UHGV virus genome: UHGV-0102868
Length of the DNA: 34,597 nt
DNA from: a virus
Reading direction: 5' to 3' (one strand)
The notes under the pieces were generated by a model. That model saw only the letters and a list, made by a program, of their open reading frames with translations. It had not been told where the DNA came from and did no database searches. Positions within the stretch are counted from its first letter, which is position 1; every line of letters begins with the position of its first letter. The position numbers and the translations under genes were made by a program. Below are positions 4,448-19,811 of the stretch, piece by piece.

Positions 4448-5026
4448 ATGAGAGACATTGATGTAAGAAAGGCTGTGCATGCCAAGATTCTGAGAGATCA
4501 TCATAAAGATCCTGACACCCTAATCATTGATGAGTTTACGATGAATCTAGGGGCTAGCAGAGCTGATATAGCAGTGATCAATGGGCTTATACATGGTTAT
4601 GAGTTGAAGAGCAAGAGTGATAACTTGCTCAGATTACCAGCGCAGGTGCAACATTACTCATCAGTGATGGATAAAGTAACTTTGGTTGTCTCTGATTGCC
4701 ATCTTTATGATGCTTTAAGCATAGTTCCATCATGGTGGGGGATAAAGCAAGTTACGCAAGGTGCACGGCAAGGTATCCATTTAAAAACAATTCGAACTAG
4801 CAAGTTGAATCCACAAGTGGACAAACTTTCCTTAACAATGCTTCTTTGGAAAGATGAATTGCTTTCCCTATTAAGTGATGTAGGGGAGCTACAGAATTTG
4901 AAAAATAAACCTAAACGCGTCTTATGGTCAAAACTCGCCAATAGTATGGATGTTGGCGAGCTTCGTGAAGCTGTTCGAGTTAAACTTAAAGCCCGTAAAG
5001 AGTGGCGAGTTGCTCAACAACCTTAG
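4448..5026 (+). CDS. uncharacterised protein, possible PD-(D/E)xK nuclease-fold (ORF-A)
   Basis: 192-aa ORF in visibly AT-rich DNA. Translation has D28/E29, D40 and E52-x-K54 (IIDEF ... RADIAVI ... YELKS), spaced like a restriction-endonuclease-type active site. An extended -10-like TGTTAAAAT lies upstream (4327-4335). Confidence 0.6.
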   Translation: MRDIDVRKAVHAKILRDHHKDPDTLIIDEFTMNLGASRADIAVINGLIHGYELKSKSDNLLRLPAQVQHYSSVMDKVTLVVSDCHLYDALSIVPSWWGIKQVTQGARQGIHLKTIRTSKLNPQVDKLSLTMLLWKDELLSLLSDVGELQNLKNKPKRVLWSKLANSMDVGELREAVRVKLKARKEWRVAQQP

Positions 5027-6083
5027 TTATGTGATGGTTTTGCCCAATCCTACGCCATACCTCTGGGCTACCAAATTTATAGTTACCAGAGGGATTGGCT
5101 TTGTAGGCTTGATACTCGTTTGCATAATATTCTATGTCTCTATCTCCCGCACAGAATGTAGGCCCTGAATATTCTCGATGAGCAAGAATATCCTCACTAT
5201 GTTTACCATATTGTTCATAACCAAAGCGATTAGCTACTCTTCCTCGAAATACCCAAAAGTCATTATCTCCAGAGTATCTGACGCTGGCAGATACGCTAGG
5301 GAATCGCGTCGAAAGCCTATTAAAGTCGGGGTGCTGTACTCCATAATCACTATAAATCACATTTCTGGCAAGTTCTTTTCTATTCATTAAACTCTGCCAT
5401 AAAATCCACTCGATTCGAGGTTGAGAATATAGACCAACAGAAATATCACTGAGATCTGTAGGAAATGAACCCCCAGAAAGAATCACTTTTCTGTATTCAT
5501 TGAGGTGCGCCAGATTGTTTATCAATCCCATTGCCAAAGTATATAGTTCGCCGGAATTAAGTTTATCCTCGGTTAACTCATCTCTTAAGTCAATAATTAT
5601 ATCAATATTTGATAAAGGAATTCCTAGATGATTAATGTAATGCGTTATTAATTGTGGGTTAACCAGATCTAACGTGGTTAATCTCAAGCATATTTCATTC
5701 TGCATTAATTCATCAATCGCTCTTTTATAGTTAGATGGGCGAGTTGGTGAACTGACAGGAATAACTCTTATCCCCATATCTCTAACTTGATTAACCGCAT
5801 TTATTATAGGGTAATGATCTTCAGGAGAAATAAAATGCTCTTCAATTAATAATCCATCAATATAAACACCTTGCATATCTGAGCAAGATTTTGAGACTTT
5901 CTTTCCGAACTCTATAAGAGTCTCGTTATAACTCTTTAAGGCAATACCTGAATCAGGGTCAATTGGCACTGGTTCAATTTCGAGTAATGGCAAAATTTTT
6001 GATTTCTTTTCAATGGATAGCTGCGATAAAGCTGATAACTCAGAACGTTTCGCTTTCAGAATAGGAATATATGAAATTGCCAT
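4986..6083 (-). CDS. uncharacterised 365-aa protein (ORF-B), convergent partner of ORF-A
   Basis: Long uninterrupted minus-strand ORF, the only convincing minus-strand gene in the window. AT-rich. Its 3' end overlaps the ORF-A 3' end by 41 bp. No motif I can name with confidence. Confidence 0.7.
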   Translation of the reverse strand: MAISYIPILKAKRSELSALSQLSIEKKSKILPLLEIEPVPIDPDSGIALKSYNETLIEFGKKVSKSCSDMQGVYIDGLLIEEHFISPEDHYPIINAVNQVRDMGIRVIPVSSPTRPSNYKRAIDELMQNEICLRLTTLDLVNPQLITHYINHLGIPLSNIDIIIDLRDELTEDKLNSGELYTLAMGLINNLAHLNEYRKVILSGGSFPTDLSDISVGLYSQPRIEWILWQSLMNRKELARNVIYSDYGVQHPDFNRLSTRFPSVSASVRYSGDNDFWVFRGRVANRFGYEQYGKHSEDILAHREYSGPTFCAGDRDIEYYANEYQAYKANPSGNYKFGSPEVWRRIGQNHHITKVVEQLATLYGL

Positions 6084-10374: not shown

Positions 10375-10450
<76 letters not shown>

Positions 10451-10453
10451 TAT

Positions 10454-10528
<75 letters not shown>

Positions 10529-12389: not shown

Positions 12390-12526
12390 AATCTTAACTA
12401 CAATATGATTCATTTTGATGATTGTTTCATAAGGAACAGTGAAGTAAGATCTAAGAGGAGTTAAATTTTATACAGTATAATCATAATATTGCAGCAAGGT
12501 GGTTATAATTGAAAGAATATTTAGAT

Positions 12527-13984
12527 ATGAATACATCTCATGTAAGAGTTGTTACTCATATGTGTGGGTTCCTGGTTTGGCTCTATAGTCTTTCAATGTT
12601 GCCACCAATGGTTGTAGCATTGTTTTATAAAGAAAAAAGCCTGTTCGTTTTCTTTATAACTTTCGTTATATTTTTTTGCATTGGTGGCGGAGCGTGGTAT
12701 ACAACTAAGAAATCTGGCATTCAATTACGTACCCGTGATGGGTTTATTATAATTGTAATGTTTTGGATTTTGTTTTCTGTTATTAGTGCATTCCCTTTAT
12801 GGATTGACTCAGAACTTAATTTAACGTTCATTGATGCTCTGTTTGAAGGGGTTTCTGGAATAACAACAACAGGAGCAACTGTAATTGATGATGTTAGTTC
12901 ATTACCTCGGGCATATTTGTACTATCGGTCACAGTTAAATTTTATTGGTGGTTTAGGAGTTATTGTTCTGGCGGTTGCTGTATTGCCATTATTGGGTATT
13001 GGTGGTGCAAAGCTTTATCAGTCAGAAATGCCGGGGCCATTTAAGGATGACAAACTCACTCCCCGCCTGGCCGATACGTCACGGACACTGTGGATAACTT
13101 ATTCTTTATTAGGTATTGCTTGTATTGTCTGTTATAGACTTGCAGGAATGCCTTTGTTTGATGCTATTTGTCACGGGATTTCCACAGTTTCGCTTGGTGG
13201 TTTCTCAACTCATAGCGAGAGTATCGGATATTTTAATAACTATTTGGTTGAGCTGGTGGCTGGTTCTTTTTCCCTGCTATCGGCTTTCAACTTCACTCTT
13301 TGGTATATTGTTATTAGCAGGAAAACGATAAAACCTTTAATCAGAGATATTGAACTTCGTTTCTTTCTGTTAATAGCCTTAGGGGTGATCATTGTTACCT
13401 CTTTCCAGGTCTGGCATATAGGTATGTATGACTTGCATGGAAGTTTTATTCATTCGTTTTTTCTTGCCAGCTCCATGCTCACTGATAATGGTTTAGCTAC
13501 GCAGGATTATGCAAACTGGCCCACGCACACGATAGTGTTTTTGCTGTCGTCAAGTTTCTTTGGGGGATGTATAGGTTCAACTTGTGGTGGAATTAAGTCA
13601 CTTCGATTTCTTATACTTTTCAAACAAAGCAAACACGAGATAAATCAGCTTTCTCATCCCAGAGCGTTGTTGAGTGTAAATGTAGGAGGGAAGATAGTTA
13701 CAGATCGTGTAATGAGGTCTGTATGGAGTTTCTTTTTTCTTTATACTCTCTTCACGGTGTTTTTTATACTGGTGTTAAATGGTATGGGATATGATTTTCT
13801 TACATCATTTGCAACAGTGGCTGCATGTATTAATAATATGGGATTAGGTTTTGGGGCTACTGCATCGTCATTCGGAGTGCTTAATGACATTGCAAAATAT
13901 TTAATGTGCATAGCTATGATTCTTGGTCGCCTTGAAATTTATCCTGTTATTATATTGTTTTCAGGTTTTTTTTGGCGCTCCTAA
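12527..13984 (+). CDS. trkG: TrkH/TrkG-family potassium uptake transporter (moron)
   Basis: Polytopic membrane protein with repeated selectivity-filter-like glycine motifs (SGITTTGATV, IGGLGVIVL, STCGGIKSL), as in TrkH/TrkG; AT-rich. Alternative TTG start at 12509 behind SD AAGGTGG. Confidence 0.85.
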   Translation: MNTSHVRVVTHMCGFLVWLYSLSMLPPMVVALFYKEKSLFVFFITFVIFFCIGGGAWYTTKKSGIQLRTRDGFIIIVMFWILFSVISAFPLWIDSELNLTFIDALFEGVSGITTTGATVIDDVSSLPRAYLYYRSQLNFIGGLGVIVLAVAVLPLLGIGGAKLYQSEMPGPFKDDKLTPRLADTSRTLWITYSLLGIACIVCYRLAGMPLFDAICHGISTVSLGGFSTHSESIGYFNNYLVELVAGSFSLLSAFNFTLWYIVISRKTIKPLIRDIELRFFLLIALGVIIVTSFQVWHIGMYDLHGSFIHSFFLASSMLTDNGLATQDYANWPTHTIVFLLSSSFFGGCIGSTCGGIKSLRFLILFKQSKHEINQLSHPRALLSVNVGGKIVTDRVMRSVWSFFFLYTLFTVFFILVLNGMGYDFLTSFATVAACINNMGLGFGATASSFGVLNDIAKYLMCIAMILGRLEIYPVIILFSGFFWRS

Positions 13985-14121: not shown

Positions 14122-14910
14122 ATGAGCGAGAAATTAAAGATAGTCTATCGCCCATTACAAGAATTGTCACCGTATGCGCACAACGCCAGGACGCACAGTA
14201 CTGAGCAGGTGGCACAACTGGTAGAAAGTATTAAGCAATTCGGCTGGACTAATCCGGTGCTGATTGACGAAAAGGGCGAAATTATTGCGGGTCACGGTCG
14301 TGTTATGGCGGCTGAAATGCTCAAAATGGATTCTGTTCCGGTCATTGTTCTGTCTGGCCTGACGGATGATCAGAAAAAGGCGTACCGCCTGGCAGATAAT
14401 CGCCTACCGATGAATGCTGGCTGGGATGAAGATCTGTTGCGGATGGAGCTGTCGGACCTAATCAATGCTGATTTTGATGTCTCCCTGACAGGCTTCGGCC
14501 CGACAGAAATTGATGAACTGTTGACGGATGTTTTGCCCGGTACAGGAAATAAGAAGGAGCCGTATACGACGAAAATTGATACGCCTGTTTATGAGCCGTC
14601 GGGCGGTAAACCGGATATCAGTGAACTGTACGACGATACGAAAACTCAGGAGCTGATCAGCCGGATACGTTCGGCGTCCCTTGATCCTGATATTGAGAAA
14701 TTCCTCCTGTGTGCGGCAGAACGTCACACGGTGTTTAATTTCAGCAGAATTGCGGACTATTACGCTCATGCCCCCGCTGAAATTCAGTGCCTTTTCGAGG
14801 AGTCGGCGCTGGTGATCATTGATTATCAGCAGGCTATTGAAAATGGATTTGTCCGAATGACGCAGCGCATGGTGGCGATCATGCATAGCGGGGAGGAGGA
14901 ATATGCGTGA
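14122..14910 (+). CDS. ParB-like nuclease domain protein
   Basis: N-terminal ParB/sulfiredoxin-type signature (IIAGHGRVMAA, DNRLPMNAGWD); 120-aa C-terminal extension of unknown function; its stop overlaps the next start by 8 nt. Confidence 0.75.
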   Translation: MSEKLKIVYRPLQELSPYAHNARTHSTEQVAQLVESIKQFGWTNPVLIDEKGEIIAGHGRVMAAEMLKMDSVPVIVLSGLTDDQKKAYRLADNRLPMNAGWDEDLLRMELSDLINADFDVSLTGFGPTEIDELLTDVLPGTGNKKEPYTTKIDTPVYEPSGGKPDISELYDDTKTQELISRIRSASLDPDIEKFLLCAAERHTVFNFSRIADYYAHAPAEIQCLFEESALVIIDYQQAIENGFVRMTQRMVAIMHSGEEEYA

Positions 14911-15835
14911 TGATTTTTGCGCCTTTATTCTGACTCACGGGCGACCGGACAAAGTTCTGACTTACCGGACGTTGCGTCGTGCTGGCTATACCGGGAAAAT
15001 TTTTATCGTTGTTGATGATGAAGATAAGACACGGCATCAGTACATGGCTGAATTTGGTGAACAGGTGCTGGTATTTTCCAAAGCAGATATTGCCAGTCGT
15101 TTTGACGAAGCCGATAATTTTGGTGACCGCCGCTCAATTTTTTACGCCCGTAATGCCTGTTTCGACCTGGCAAAACTGGTCGGGTGTAAATACTTCATTC
15201 AGCTCGATGATGATTATCACGAGTTCCAGTTTCGGGTGGATCGCAACTATGACCAGGCCTATTTCCCGATAAGGAAACTGGATGCGATCCTTTCTGAAAT
15301 GCTGGCGTATTACGAATCAATACCCGCGCTTTCCATCGCTATGTCGCAGGGCGGGGATTTTCTTGGTGACAATGGCGGCCATGCTTCGTGGGTGAAACGC
15401 AAGGCAATGAACAGCTTTATCTGTTCGGTTGATCGACCGTTCTCATTCATGGGGCGCATTAACGAGGATGTGAATACGTACACGAATCTCGGTCGCCGTG
15501 GTGAATTGTTTATGACGATCGGTGCTGTCCAGTTAGGGCAGAAACAGACGCAGAAAAACAGCGGCGGAATGACCGAGCTGTATCTGGATTCCGGGACCTA
15601 CGTTAAAAGTTTTTATTCCGTCATGTATGCGCCGTCGTGCGTAAAAATCTCACTGATGGGCGCCAGCCATAAACGCATTCACCATCAGGTCACCTGGAAC
15701 AACGCTGCAGTAAAAATCCTTCACGAAAAATACAGGAAGAAGACACCCTGCATATTAATGGGGGTGACAAATGATTCCGTATTCGAAAGTCGAGTCTCTG
15801 GCAGCGTGCCGGATGACTGCACAACAAATCGCTGA
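14903..15835 (+). CDS. GT-A-fold glycosyltransferase-like protein (DxD motif)
   Basis: Strong RBS GGAGGAGGA; spacing of beta1 (CAFILTHGRPD), beta2 (KIFIVVDDEDKT) and DxD (YFIQLDDDYH) matches GT-A nucleotide-sugar transferases by eye; translationally coupled to the ParB-like gene. Confidence 0.6.
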   Translation: MRDDFCAFILTHGRPDKVLTYRTLRRAGYTGKIFIVVDDEDKTRHQYMAEFGEQVLVFSKADIASRFDEADNFGDRRSIFYARNACFDLAKLVGCKYFIQLDDDYHEFQFRVDRNYDQAYFPIRKLDAILSEMLAYYESIPALSIAMSQGGDFLGDNGGHASWVKRKAMNSFICSVDRPFSFMGRINEDVNTYTNLGRRGELFMTIGAVQLGQKQTQKNSGGMTELYLDSGTYVKSFYSVMYAPSCVKISLMGASHKRIHHQVTWNNAAVKILHEKYRKKTPCILMGVTNDSVFESRVSGSVPDDCTTNR

Positions 15836-16022
15836 CGTTCTGGATGTTGATCTGAACCGACTGAAAGAAAATCGGGAAGCAATGACAAATTTTTACGCGT
15901 CCATCCGTAAGGGCAGAGCGAAAGGTGAAGCCGAGCTACGGGCGGCATTGTTTAAGCTTGCCAGAAAAGGGGATGCCTTTGCCCTGCGCGAACTACTCAG
16001 GGTGGATAAAAATCAGGACTAA
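15771..16022 (+). CDS. small HTH-like DNA-binding protein (possible terminase small-subunit accessory domain)
   Basis: RBS GGGGTGA; HTH-like segment MTAQQIADVLDVDL; overlaps the 3' end of the GT-like gene in another frame. Start uncertain (15771 or 15813). Confidence 0.4.
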   Translation: MIPYSKVESLAACRMTAQQIADVLDVDLNRLKENREAMTNFYASIRKGRAKGEAELRAALFKLARKGDAFALRELLRVDKNQD

Positions 16023-16025
16023 CTG

Positions 16026-17120
16026 ATGAGCAGACCGGACTGGGGGGCGTTGCAGCAGGAGTATATTGCTGAATACACCCGCTCCGGTATATCTCCGGTG
16101 GCATGGTGTGAAGCAAGGGGACTGAATTACGCAACAGCCCGTCGTTACATCAAAAAACCTCCGAAAAATGCGCAGACAGAAATGCGCAAAACTGCGCAAA
16201 AAAGTGCGCAGAAAAAATCTGCGCAGACTGCACAAAAGCGGAACGGAAAATCTCAGGAAAAAAAGCCAGTATCCGATGCGTACCTGAATGAGGGCGATGC
16301 GGAAGAAATTTCGTTCTGTCCCGATGAATTCGGCATTTCTGACCAGCAGGCTAAGTTTGCGATGCTTGTTGCTCAGGGTAAAAAGCCGACAGAGGCGTAC
16401 CGACTAGCCGGTTATGAGGGGCAAGGTGCGACAGCTAACAGCAACGCCAGTCGTATGCTTAGAAATGCCAGGGTTTTTCGCGCTATCAGCTACTTCCGCA
16501 ATCAGTACCAGAAACGCTATACCGCAGACCTGGATTTACTAGTGAGTCAGTTGATGGCTATTGTCCTGGCCGACCCCAATCAGCTTGCACAATTTCGCCG
16601 TGTTAACTGCCGTTATTGCTGGGGCGAGAATCATCTCTACCAGTGGCGCGATATAGCAGAATTCGACAAGGCAGCGGCGCAGGCTTCCAGAGATGGCAAA
16701 CCCGAACCGGAATATGGAGGCCTCGGCTTTGTTGATAACGCCATACCCAATCCGGACTGCCCGAAGTGCTGCGGTGAGGGAACGGGACAGCTTTATATGG
16801 CTGATACCACTCTGCTTGATGGGGATGCGCGGCAATTATATGCAGGGGCAAAATTCGGAAAATTCGGCGTTGAGATCCTGCTGGAGGATAAGGCTGCCGC
16901 CCGGCGTGAATTGTTGCGTTTGTTTTCTGCTGGCGGGGCTTTATGTGCAGATAAACGGCTACAGGAACTGGAAATTGAACGGCGCAGAATGGAAAACCAG
17001 AAGCTGCGCAAAGAGATCGAAACGGTGGAAGATAATGAACATCCCCAGCCTGTGGCGATCAATATTAATGTGGTTGATGCCAGAGTAAGGAGTGATGAAG
17101 ATGATCTCTCCGACGCTTAA
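16026..17120 (+). CDS. terminase small subunit
   Basis: Segment FGISDQQAKFAMLVAQGKKPTEAYRLAGYEG...SRMLRN resembles the HTH of small terminase subunits; directly upstream of the large subunit. Confidence 0.7.
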   Translation: MSRPDWGALQQEYIAEYTRSGISPVAWCEARGLNYATARRYIKKPPKNAQTEMRKTAQKSAQKKSAQTAQKRNGKSQEKKPVSDAYLNEGDAEEISFCPDEFGISDQQAKFAMLVAQGKKPTEAYRLAGYEGQGATANSNASRMLRNARVFRAISYFRNQYQKRYTADLDLLVSQLMAIVLADPNQLAQFRRVNCRYCWGENHLYQWRDIAEFDKAAAQASRDGKPEPEYGGLGFVDNAIPNPDCPKCCGEGTGQLYMADTTLLDGDARQLYAGAKFGKFGVEILLEDKAAARRELLRLFSAGGALCADKRLQELEIERRRMENQKLRKEIETVEDNEHPQPVAININVVDARVRSDEDDLSDA

Positions 17121-18402
17121 TGTGCCTCAGGCGCGATTTCTTTCAATGCCCCATAAATTTAAAGCCTATATTGCTGGTTTTGGCTCGGGCAAAACATGGG
17201 TTGGGTGTGGCGGCATATGCAAGGGGATTTGGGAGCATCCAGGTATAAATCAGGGATATTTTGCGCCAACGTATCCCCAAATTCGCGATATTTTTTACCC
17301 TACAGTGGAAGAAGTTGCTGCTGACTGGGGATTGAACGTAAAAATTAATGAGGGAAATAAAGAGGTTCACTTTTATTACGGACGCCAGTATCGGGGAACC
17401 ACTATCTGCAGATCGATGGAGAAGCCACAAACGATCGTCGGTTTCAAAATTGGTAATGCGTTGGTGGATGAACTGGACATTTTGCCGAAGGAAAAAGCCA
17501 GAACGGCGTGGCGCAAGATAATTGCACGTATGCGTTATAAGATTGATGGACTTCGCAACGGTATTGACGTTACAACCACGCCGGAAGGATTCAAATTTGT
17601 CTACGAGCAGTTTGTTAAAGCCGTGCGTGAAAAAACAGAGCTGGCCTCACTGTATGGTCTGGTGCAGGCATCTACTTTCGATAATGAAAAGAACCTGCCA
17701 GCAGATTACATTCCTTCGCTTCTTGAATCATACCCTCCAGAGCTGATTAAAGCCTATCTGCGAGGACAGTTTACTAACCTGACAAGTGGTACTGTTTACC
17801 ATCAGTTTGACCGGAAACTGAATAATTGCGAAGAAGTGGAGCAGCCAGGGGAGCCGATTTATATTGGGATGGATTTTAACGTTGGAAAGATGGCGGGAAT
17901 CGTCCATGTGCTGCGTTTGGGGCTTCCATGTGCGGTAACTGAAATCATCAATGCCTACGATACGCCGGATATGATCCGCATCATTAAAGAACGCTTCTGG
18001 CTGTATGATGGGAATGATTACCGGAAAGTGAGGGAAATTTATATTTATCCAGATGCTTCCGGGGATTCCAGAAAATCAAGTAACGCAAGTACGACGGATA
18101 TAGCCCAGCTTAAGCAGGCTGGTTTTAACGTTGTGGTGAACAGCTCGAACCCGCCAGTAAAAGATCGCGTTAACTCAATGAATGCAATGTTCTGCAATGC
18201 CAATGGTGAGCGTCGCTATAAAGTTAATGTGAAGCGTTGCCCGTTATATGCCGAATCTCTGGAGCAACAGGTCTGGGATGAGAAGGGGGAGCCTGATAAA
18301 AAATCTGGCAATGATCACCCGAATGATGCCGGAGGTTATTTCATCGTTAAGCAATTCCCTATTGTCAAACCGACCGGAAGAGTCACATCACTTCGGATTT
18401 AA
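17101..18402 (+). CDS. terminase large subunit
   Basis: Walker A GFGSGKT near the N-terminus; about 430 aa; SD AAGGAG 8 nt before ATG 17101. Alternative starts at 17092 and 17095. Confidence 0.85.
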   Translation: MISPTLNVPQARFLSMPHKFKAYIAGFGSGKTWVGCGGICKGIWEHPGINQGYFAPTYPQIRDIFYPTVEEVAADWGLNVKINEGNKEVHFYYGRQYRGTTICRSMEKPQTIVGFKIGNALVDELDILPKEKARTAWRKIIARMRYKIDGLRNGIDVTTTPEGFKFVYEQFVKAVREKTELASLYGLVQASTFDNEKNLPADYIPSLLESYPPELIKAYLRGQFTNLTSGTVYHQFDRKLNNCEEVEQPGEPIYIGMDFNVGKMAGIVHVLRLGLPCAVTEIINAYDTPDMIRIIKERFWLYDGNDYRKVREIYIYPDASGDSRKSSNASTTDIAQLKQAGFNVVVNSSNPPVKDRVNSMNAMFCNANGERRYKVNVKRCPLYAESLEQQVWDEKGEPDKKSGNDHPNDAGGYFIVKQFPIVKPTGRVTSLRI

Positions 18403-18404
18403 TT

Positions 18405-19811
18405 ATGGCTGATATATCAACACCCAACCTCGACTATAACGATATGCTGGAGGCGTGGGATATTAACGACGCACTGATGGGCGGTACGCTTGAAATGCGC
18501 AGGCAGGGGGAAAATTATCTCCCAAAATGGCCTAACGAAGATGAAGACGCTTATAAAAAACGCCTGTCTGTGGCTACGCTACTTCCTGTGTATGAAGAAA
18601 GCATCAAGCAAAATATTGGGCGCATATTTGCAGAGCCGACAGTATTGAGTGAGGAAACGCCGGCAAAAATCAGGGAATATACAGAAAATATCGACATGGA
18701 GGGGAGCCGACTGGATGTGTGGGCGCAGCAATTTTTCAGCCTCGCATTTCAGTATGGTGTGGCACATGCGCTGGTGGACTATCCACGAACGGATATGAAA
18801 GAGATTCGTACAAAAGCCGATGAAAACGCGACCGGTGGTCGTCCGTACGTTACGATGCTGAATCCACGCCAGGTTATTGGATGGAAATCGAAAGTTGAAA
18901 AAGGGAAAGTTGTTCTCACTGATTTGCGTATAAAAGAGGTCATCATTATTGATGGTGATGATTTCGGGCAGAAGAAGGTGGAGCAGATCCGCCATATTAT
19001 GCCCCGTCGAGTTGAAATTTATCGACGTAGCGAAGGCACTAATGGCGAATCTGTCTGGACGCTTCATGAGTCATGGAATACCAGCCGTGATGATATTCCT
19101 CTGGTAACACTGTACACGAAGAAAACAGGATTTATGCGTGGTACACCGCCATTGCTTAATCTTGGCTTGCTGAATATCAAGCACTGGCAAAGCCAGAGCG
19201 AGCAGGACAATATTCTTCATGTTACCCGCGTTCCATTGCTGGTGGCCTACGGGCTGGACAGGAATGAAGAACTGACGGTTGGTGCATCCACCGCTACGAT
19301 TTTTGAGGACAGAACAAAAAATGGCCTCGAATATGTTGAACATAGTGGCGCAGCGATAGAATCTGGCGAAACATCACTTGAGAAGCTGGAAAATCAGATG
19401 CGTCATGCCGGCGCTAAACTTCTGCGTGCTGAAAATACATCCACCAAATCTGTTGATCAGACTAATGAAGAGCGAATGCAGGAAAACTCGCCGCTTTATA
19501 CAATGGCGAACTCCCTCGAAGATGCCCTCGATAATATTCTCCAGATAATGGCGGAATGGATCGGAGAGAGTTGCGGTGGCAATGTGGATGTGCGCACTGA
19601 ACTGGATGTATCTGCCCAGGTGTTTGACTCATCCTCCGCGCTGGCTGTTCAGTCATTGCGTCAGGGCGGTGATATACGTCAGATTGATGCGGTTCGGGTG
19701 TTGCAGGCGTTGAAATTTATCGATCAGGATTCCCGTCCAGAGGAAGTGATCGATGAATTAAAAAATCAGAGTGTAATGCTGATGGAAATCAATGATGCAA
19801 ACCGTGAATGA
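18405..19811 (+). CDS. portal protein
   Basis: 468-aa ORF immediately after the large terminase; size and position typical of portals. Assignment is positional. Confidence 0.7.
   Translation: MADISTPNLDYNDMLEAWDINDALMGGTLEMRRQGENYLPKWPNEDEDAYKKRLSVATLLPVYEESIKQNIGRIFAEPTVLSEETPAKIREYTENIDMEGSRLDVWAQQFFSLAFQYGVAHALVDYPRTDMKEIRTKADENATGGRPYVTMLNPRQVIGWKSKVEKGKVVLTDLRIKEVIIIDGDDFGQKKVEQIRHIMPRRVEIYRRSEGTNGESVWTLHESWNTSRDDIPLVTLYTKKTGFMRGTPPLLNLGLLNIKHWQSQSEQDNILHVTRVPLLVAYGLDRNEELTVGASTATIFEDRTKNGLEYVEHSGAAIESGETSLEKLENQMRHAGAKLLRAENTSTKSVDQTNEERMQENSPLYTMANSLEDALDNILQIMAEWIGESCGGNVDVRTELDVSAQVFDSSSALAVQSLRQGGDIRQIDAVRVLQALKFIDQDSRPEEVIDELKNQSVMLMEINDANRE

Follow-up and report, generated by a model that had tools for sequence, protein, structure and literature searches.

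Experimentally defined packaging initiation (pac) sites are known for a handful of phages and are usually unreadable from sequence. The candidate described here is an array of the hexamer TGCGCA inside the small terminase (TerS) gene of UHGV-0102868, a Rac-type lambdoid prophage of E. coli. The whole stretch of 34,597 nucleotides (nt) is referred to as the window, and coordinates are those of the whole stretch unless another locus is named. Among the closest described systems, the pac site of SPP1 (pacL/pacC/pacR) overlaps the small terminase gene and comprises A-tracts and short repeats to which several TerS subunits bind. The SPP1 small subunit, G1P, is the type member of Pfam Terminase_2, the same core family as the window TerS. 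However, the SPP1 boxes are different sequences that are read by the helix-turn-helix (HTH) of the core, and G1P lacks a PacA-type N-terminal domain. In lambda, the R-elements of cosB are several short copies bound by the N-terminal winged HTH of gpNu1, positioning the large subunit. These elements are located outside the gene and function in cos (cohesive-end) cleavage, and the lambda proteins are unrelated to the window TerS.

A nearer precedent is phage P1, in which the pac site is a 161 bp region of pacA with seven TGATCA/G hexamers that carry Dam sites (PMC10028697). Synonymous recoding of these hexamers lowers the titre ~9-fold, and Dam methylation of the GATC hexamers controls pac cleavage (PMC10028697). 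In P1 pacA the HTH FNLNPNTARRYLR is followed by four TGATCA at nt 194–228 (frames 2, 3, 3 and 3), an annotated integration host factor (IHF) site and the pac cuts at nt 256–285 (cleavage at 276–285), and then three to four further hexamers at nt 324–375. The original prediction for the window, made from the letters alone, had invoked P22 and SPP1 as headful precedents; P1 is the closer one, as the N-terminal domain of the window TerS is homologous to that of PacA.

The array (16169–16234) is probably a pac recognition element read by the N-terminal HTH of TerS. The array exists, is kept at the DNA level, is tied to a PacA-type HTH, and its word covaries with the recognition helix of that HTH. 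The features concerned are as follows.

16026–17120, + strand: TerS gene (terS), 364 amino acids (aa), with a PacA-type HTH, a linker, a Terminase_2 core and a CxxC...CxxC insertion
16026–16160, + strand: PacA-type HTH, residues 1–45, with the recognition helix YATARRYIKK and the codon of the covarying Arg39 at 16140–16142
16164–16237, + strand: entire array, the proposed pac recognition element, with A-rich spacers; span from Tandem Repeats Finder (TRF)
16169–16174: TGCGCA copy 1, codons aaT-GCG-CAg, N-A-Q
16183–16188: TGCGCA copy 2, in another codon frame, aTG-CGC-Aaa, M-R-K; missing from some close relatives
16193–16198: TGCGCA copy 3, acT-GCG-CAa, T-A-Q
16205–16210: TGCGCA copy 4, agT-GCG-CAg, S-A-Q
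16220–16225: TGCGCA copy 5, tcT-GCG-CAg, S-A-Q
16229–16234: decayed copy 6, TGCACA; most Rac-type relatives read TGCGCA here
16170–16307, + strand: Lys/Gln/Ala-rich linker, residues 49–94, predicted to be disordered; the permissive region that hosts the array
16323–16505, + strand: second HTH, residues 100–160, part of the Terminase_2 (SPP1 G1P-type) core
17092–18402, + strand: large terminase (TerL), nuclease/ATPase (Terminase_6N 3.7e-33, Terminase_6C 3.4e-10); overlaps the end of terS

The five exact copies start at 16169, 16183, 16193, 16205 and 16220, with spacings of 14, 10, 12 and 15 bp, while the sixth at 16229 differs from TGCGCA by one mismatch. All lie within the 364-aa open reading frame (ORF) at 16026–17120, where the five exact copies and the decayed one cover gene nt 144–209, compared with nt 194–233 for the P1 copies. 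Five copies in the small terminase gene had been reported in the original prediction, correctly as to number and gene, with coordinates 2–3 bp too low. TGCGCA is not enriched across the window, as its 19 copies compare with 14.9 in shuffles (standard deviation 3.9). Locally, no hexamer cluster elsewhere in the window is as dense as these five copies in 57 bp. In 300 first-order Markov simulations a comparable span never held more than two copies, and a Poisson estimate expects ~1.6e-7 clusters of this kind. Pooling 313 non-redundant copies gave the consensus element AAAnTGCGCA(A/G)A, whose asymmetric flanks make the copies direct repeats of a 10–12 bp element.

Sequence comparison indicates that the TGCGCA copies are kept by selection on DNA rather than on protein. 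Synonymous codons were permuted within the gene, keeping protein and codon usage, and hexamers were counted in nt 130–240. The shuffled window gene contained a mean of 0.95 TGCGCA compared with the 5 observed; none of 2000 shuffles reached 5 and no other hexamer did so. Six relatives behaved in the same way as the window, and the P1 pac hexamers, used as a positive control, were also in excess (8 observed vs. 2.8 shuffled, 0/2000). Four of the window copies are read as xxT-GCG-CAx (x-A-Q) and copy 2 as aTG-CGC-Aaa (M-R-K). More than one codon frame is used in 105 of 114 non-redundant arrays, with 469, 112 and 34 copies per frame and the peptides AQ, [LMV]R[TKN] and CA. Across 34 distinct Rac-type sequences, 17% of hexamer columns are variable, compared with 41% in the spacers and 62% downstream. 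L078, at 66% aa identity the most divergent of them, departs from the window at one of 36 hexamer positions, a change that restores copy 6; the corresponding figures are 10 of 41 for spacer positions (p=0.008) and 75 of 234 for other positions (p=9e-5).

The AQK-rich linker that had been noted from the letters is real (residues 48–70), and its peptide seems to be a consequence of the DNA word. A-Q would come from xxT-GCG-CAx and K from the A-rich spacers, within a linker that is predicted to be disordered. The length and sequence of the linker are poorly conserved in the protein alignment. If true, this clearly exemplifies a protein linker whose peptide sequence is set by a signal in the DNA.

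The array persists well beyond close relatives of the window. TerS genes of ~40 enterobacterial species, drawn from viral and genome collections and including Serratia, Buttiauxella, Yokenella, Leclercia, Citrobacter, Raoultella, Enterobacter, Providencia, Pantoea and Lelliottia, share ~39–55% protein identity and retain three to six TGCGCA at gene nt ~138–205. At the lower end of this range, Klebsiella prophage homologues (~39% identity) have six TGCGCA at gene nt 138–196, read as T-A-Q, L-R-T and C-A in all three frames, and three further TGCGCA at nt 360–398. The conservation of hexamers at synonymous sites in homologues had been put forward as a check of the original prediction and comes out positive, with the words kept to ~39% protein identity in two or three frames. 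Together with the codon shuffles and the lower variability of hexamers than of spacers, this supports, at the level of sequence, the proposal of a pac or terminase recognition site. The TerS gene itself is found in 896 of 5426 complete E. coli genomes.

A second cluster of two to three TGCGCA at nt 348–398 (locus ~1848–1903), ~150 bp after the first, is seen in Klebsiella/Enterobacter/Citrobacter-type loci (L003/L005/L007). It lies inside the coding region of the Terminase_2 HTH (codon-shuffle P=0.0005). This two-cluster layout resembles the bipartite layout of P1 and is absent from the window.

Within the Rac-type group the copies turn over, with changes in number and spacing. Among the 34 Rac-type sequences, single copies are lost or regained by point change and units of 9–27 nt are inserted or deleted, and four to six copies are always left. 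In Rac-SA53 (L006, 1417–2445) a deletion fuses terS to an upstream gene (annotated 'gpOterS') and takes away both the HTH and hexamer 1; of the four exact copies that are left, two carry mutations (TTCGCA, TGCGCT). Rac-SA53 appears to be a case of natural decay of the array, and a packaging-recognition defect is predicted.

Profile comparison indicates that residues 1–45 of TerS are homologous to the N-terminus of P1 and D6 PacA. Alignment by hhalign of 14 TerS N-termini with those of P1 and D6 PacA gave a probability of 98.1% (E 8e-14). The window TerS N-terminus matches phrog_1711, the PacA family, at 1.4e-5 over residues ~6–79 only, whereas P1 PacA matches the same family at 4e-202; D6 PacA in turn matches phrog_51, the family of the window TerS, at 8e-5. 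In D6 PacA (L135, 1501–2865) the homologous HTH reads LSFNTARKHLNM. AlphaFold2 (AF2) models residues 1–45 with pLDDT 76–81 and helices at 3–20, 24–30 and from 35, in a helix-turn-helix arrangement. The linker (residues 49–94) has a pLDDT of 25–39, and residues 100–160 form three helices with a pLDDT of 72–89; the model derives from a shallow alignment and is confident only in the two HTH regions. The 45-residue domain also occurs in Shiga toxin (Stx) phages of the 933W/P27 type, Aeromonas phiARM81mr, Klebsiella RothC, Pasteurella Pmp11 and Providencia PSTCR3.

The window shares with P1 palindromic TG..CA hexamers that lie inside the terminase gene, starting 60–90 nt past the HTH coding region, in mixed frames and kept at synonymous sites. 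By analogy, the design would be the same as that of P1 pacA/pac with a Dam-independent word. The differences are also clear. The word is TGCGCA rather than TGATCA/G, and GATC is absent from 16164–16237, so the Dam methylation switch of P1 is impossible here. The window has one cluster of 5–6 copies, where P1 has HEX4, the IHF and cleavage sites, and HEX3. Full-length similarity to PacA and a PacB-type partner are not found; the core is Terminase_2 (phrog_51) rather than PacA (phrog_1711) and the partner is a Terminase_6-type TerL (Terminase_6N/6C) rather than PacB. Finally, the window is a lambdoid siphovirus prophage, whereas P1 is a plasmid myovirus. The overall design is therefore already known as the classic P1 pac; what appears to be new is that the word is Dam-free, that there is a single cluster, that terminase core and phage type are other than in P1, that helix and word covary across the family, and that the module has moved between core families. 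No report was found in the literature of TGCGCA terminase arrays, Rac-type packaging or the PacA N-terminal domain on other terminases, with most subscription journals lying outside the coverage.

The TerS of 933W/P27-type Stx phages is similar in having a PacA-type N-terminal domain (~40% identity, phrog_370) followed by an in-gene array. It differs in the P27 helix, TARTRIKM, and in belonging to another core family. In P27 (L138, vB_EcoS_P27, 1630–1700; also L136) four [CT]GATCAT, which contain Dam sites and encode I/T-D-H repeats, are followed by two TGCGCA. In Stx phages this array is a candidate for a pac site of the P1 kind.

The recognition helix and the repeated word change together. 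All 13 variants with an ARR[YH] helix (~110 loci) carry TGCGCA, all five variants with an AKRY helix carry TGCGAA, often as TGCGAAT, and the TARTRIKM helix of P27 is accompanied by the four [CT]GATCAT. More distant HTH types have the repeated words GTGGAAAC, GGGGCAAAA or GCGAACC. The pairs ARRY/TGCGCA and AKRY/TGCGAA are both found in each of three TerS core families (phrog_51, phrog_370 and phrog_32222), and a minimal pair is formed by L210 (LNYSTARRYIKI) with TGCGCA and L002 (LNYSTAKRYIKI) with TGCGAA. Two loci (L158 and L222) have cores that are 81–86% identical to PSTCR3, yet carry an ARRY helix and TGCGCA. Another, L220, has a core 96% identical to that of P27, with the helix TARRYIKL and six TGCGCA where P27 has GATCAT. 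Between L086 and L191/L109 the 32 residues before the helix are 100% identical while helix and word both differ. As this is so, and as the AKRY modules do not form one clade, more than linkage is needed to account for the association of helix and word.

The association was also recovered in the opposite direction. All viral contigs were scanned, with three TGCGCA spaced 3–10 bp apart as the sole criterion, and the 80 loci returned were examined with a hidden Markov model of the N-terminal domain. The domain (E 1e-22 to 1e-32) ends just upstream of the array in 58 of the 80, and one more locus, truncated where its contig ends, makes 59. The other loci are mostly perfect microsatellite-like repeats and high-GC chance matches, with one set of iterons. 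None of the 80 is an array-carrying satellite without a terminase.

We infer TerS binding, cleavage, headful mode and direction of packaging at the array. During late lytic growth, several HTH domains of an oligomeric TerS would each bind one AAAnTGCGCA(A/G)A on concatemeric DNA. The TerS nucleoprotein complex would then position TerL (17092–18402) to cut nearby, starting headful packaging, which would probably run rightward, toward terL and the head genes. Since the sites are written into the linker-coding stretch of terS, the HTH and its target would be inherited or exchanged as one module. The chances look about even that this module is a portable cassette, a 45-residue HTH plus target array, that has been exchanged among at least four TerS families (P1 PacA, the Rac/Klebsiella Terminase_2 type, the Stx/phiARM81 type and the PSTCR3 type) under the rule that Arg39 pairs with TGCGCA and Lys39 with TGCGAA.

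Several points weigh against the array being a pac element read by the N-terminal HTH. The first group concerns layout. In the window there is no exact second hexamer cluster, one-mismatch copies being present at 16277, 16298 and 16370, and no IHF consensus core, so the bipartite arrangement of P1, with two clusters flanking IHF and cleavage sites, is not reproduced. The spacing is irregular and without strict helical phase; the near-helical repeat described in the original prediction holds loosely at best, with 7, 9, 10, 12, 14, 15 and 16 bp all common across 118 related arrays (range 7–16, median 12). The position of the cut cannot be predicted from the window, and we infer the headful mode from family relationships only. 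The second group concerns specificity. P1 has an ARRY helix yet the word TGATCA, which means that Arg39 is not the sole determinant and a one-residue code is incomplete. At L145 (2090–2180) a different HTH subtype (DW..IE.DFRAGALSNRQIAKKHGVAESTLRKRIASGGW) is followed by six TGCGCA, and in D6 pacA word counting over the 300 nt after the HTH finds no obvious repeated hexamer. Part of the association between helix and word could be linkage, given that the HTH adjoins the array, and the second, Terminase_2 HTH of TerS could be the true pac reader. The literature yielded no packaging, DNA-end or TerS-binding experiments on phages with TGCGCA or TGCGAA arrays.

Two further observations stand beside these. 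Relatives of L145 in the HTH subtype (L093/L094, L095/L116 and L120/L121) have the words GTGGAAAC, GGGGCAAAA and GCGAACC/GGTTCGC. Public records of related phage genomes neither begin nor end at the array and are uninformative on virion ends.

The alternative that survives best, though unlikely, is that the array is a binding site for TerS or another protein in a non-packaging role, such as autoregulation of the late or terminase operon or origin-like iterons. Covariation demonstrates coupling to the HTH and not the purpose of binding, and the second HTH, of the SPP1 G1P type, could read another pac element. Iterons within the gene of their own binding protein do exist in replication systems, and L169 has an iteron-like TGCGCA set in an initiator-like ORF. 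However, in P1 the homologous module has been proven to be a pac site, small terminases of four core families are the only proteins on which the module is found, and a position ~140 nt inside the ORF suggests no promoter-like role.

The L169 locus (10434–10520), on a high-GC viral contig, has at least six TGCGCA-containing repeats (GATGCGCAA / TTGCGCC) at the 3' end of a winged-helix replication-initiator-like ORF. These look like origin iterons inside an initiator gene, an unrelated use of the same word.

It is very unlikely that the copies act as RNA or single-stranded DNA hairpins, for example in translation control of terS/terL. TGCGCA is self-complementary and neighbouring copies can pair; 16150–16250 folds at -32.3 kcal/mol (z = -5.3 vs. 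shuffles), with z = -3.6 and -3.9 for other TGCGCA arrays. Such folding is unavoidable for any repeated GC-rich palindrome, though, and it is not conserved in sister arrays (z = -0.01 for the nine direct TGCGAA of Pmp11, -0.6 for L002, -1.8 for P1 and -1.0 for P27). The spacing, and hence the hairpin geometry, is not conserved either, no Rfam match is found, and the covariation with the protein helix is left unexplained.

Less credible still is the idea that the pattern does nothing as DNA and simply results from a low-complexity AQK-rich coding repeat or from recent slippage during replication. In its favour, four of the exact copies encode x-A-Q in one frame, TRF detects periods (10, 12 and 36 only, all weak), and unit-sized indels occur among relatives. 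The uniform period, single frame and peptide-explained pattern of a coding microsatellite are not seen, however. The synonymous shuffles (0/2000), the two or three frames used in 105 of 114 arrays, the retention of the word at ~39% protein identity where the linker peptide is not retained, and the greater conservation of hexamers than of spacers all stand against it. The coding repeat, which the original prediction had held in reserve as a sufficient explanation, is rejected on the shuffles and the several frames. That the array is mainly a recombination hotspot between the N-terminal module and differing terminase cores is equally improbable, for although the array falls right on that junction and there are mosaics (L220, L158/L222), a hotspot needs neither a helix-matched word nor purifying selection on each hexamer.

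Beyond the N-terminal module, TerS is a member of established small terminase families. It matches Pfam Terminase_2 with 34.4 bits (cut-off 26.1; 4e-08; residues 122–321) and phrog_51, 'terminase small subunit', at 4e-75. Sequence searches of TerS and TerL against solved structures gave no useful match, and NCBIfam profiles gave sub-threshold matches only; the Pam5 small terminase chain weakly matches the second-HTH region of TerS. Four cysteines (C195, C198, C245 and C248; 16608–16769) are invariant in the family alignment and form a CxxC...CxxC insertion in the Terminase_2 core, which is probably a zinc ribbon.

The surrounding genes are listed below.

12509–13984: trkG, a potassium-uptake moron typical of Rac, likely accessory cargo
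14122–14910: gene with a ParB_N domain; together with the glycosyltransferase gene it lies directly upstream of the terminase genes
14903–15835: TET-associated glycosyltransferase (TAGT) gene (PF20691, 5.8e-36)
18405–19811, + strand: portal protein of the DUF4055 family (5.5e-45), the gene after terL in the packaging operon, followed by head and tail genes

An 83-aa ORF at 15771–16022, just 5' of terS, matches phrog_309 only over positions 145–218 of 319, in the C-terminal part (2.5e-22). This family is a small-terminase family other than that of the window TerS, and the ORF could be what is left of a terS that has been replaced, or could encode a small accessory protein that binds DNA. A Beta_protein gene (PF14350, 2.4e-52) at 4986–6083 on the - strand, in the early region, is likely accessory cargo.

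The TAGT gene looks like an orphan glycosyltransferase of the DNA-modification type, as a scan of 16 window ORFs revealed no TET or methyltransferase domain. Two database proteins (P0034 and P0035) are called as TAGT-TerS fusions. A link between DNA modification and the array, based on the GCGC within TGCGCA and the TAGT gene upstream, was considered and dropped since neither domain turned up in those 16 ORFs and array-bearing relatives lack that neighbourhood.

If the array is a pac recognition element, the start of headful packaging, and hence lateral and generalised transduction of neighbouring host genes, would become predictable, as would the phages and satellites able to share a terminase. 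The same signature marks a likely packaging origin in prophages of Klebsiella, Enterobacter, Citrobacter, Serratia, Yersinia, Providencia, Aeromonas and Pasteurella. It would also supply short sequences for making transducible plasmids, and a natural pair of helix and word (Arg/Lys vs. C/A) for studying how ring-shaped terminases read DNA. Should the portable cassette be true as well, its TGCGCA version would work without the Dam switch of P1, and pac sites and packaging compatibility would be predictable, and re-programmable, from sequence in many enterobacterial prophages, including Stx phages.

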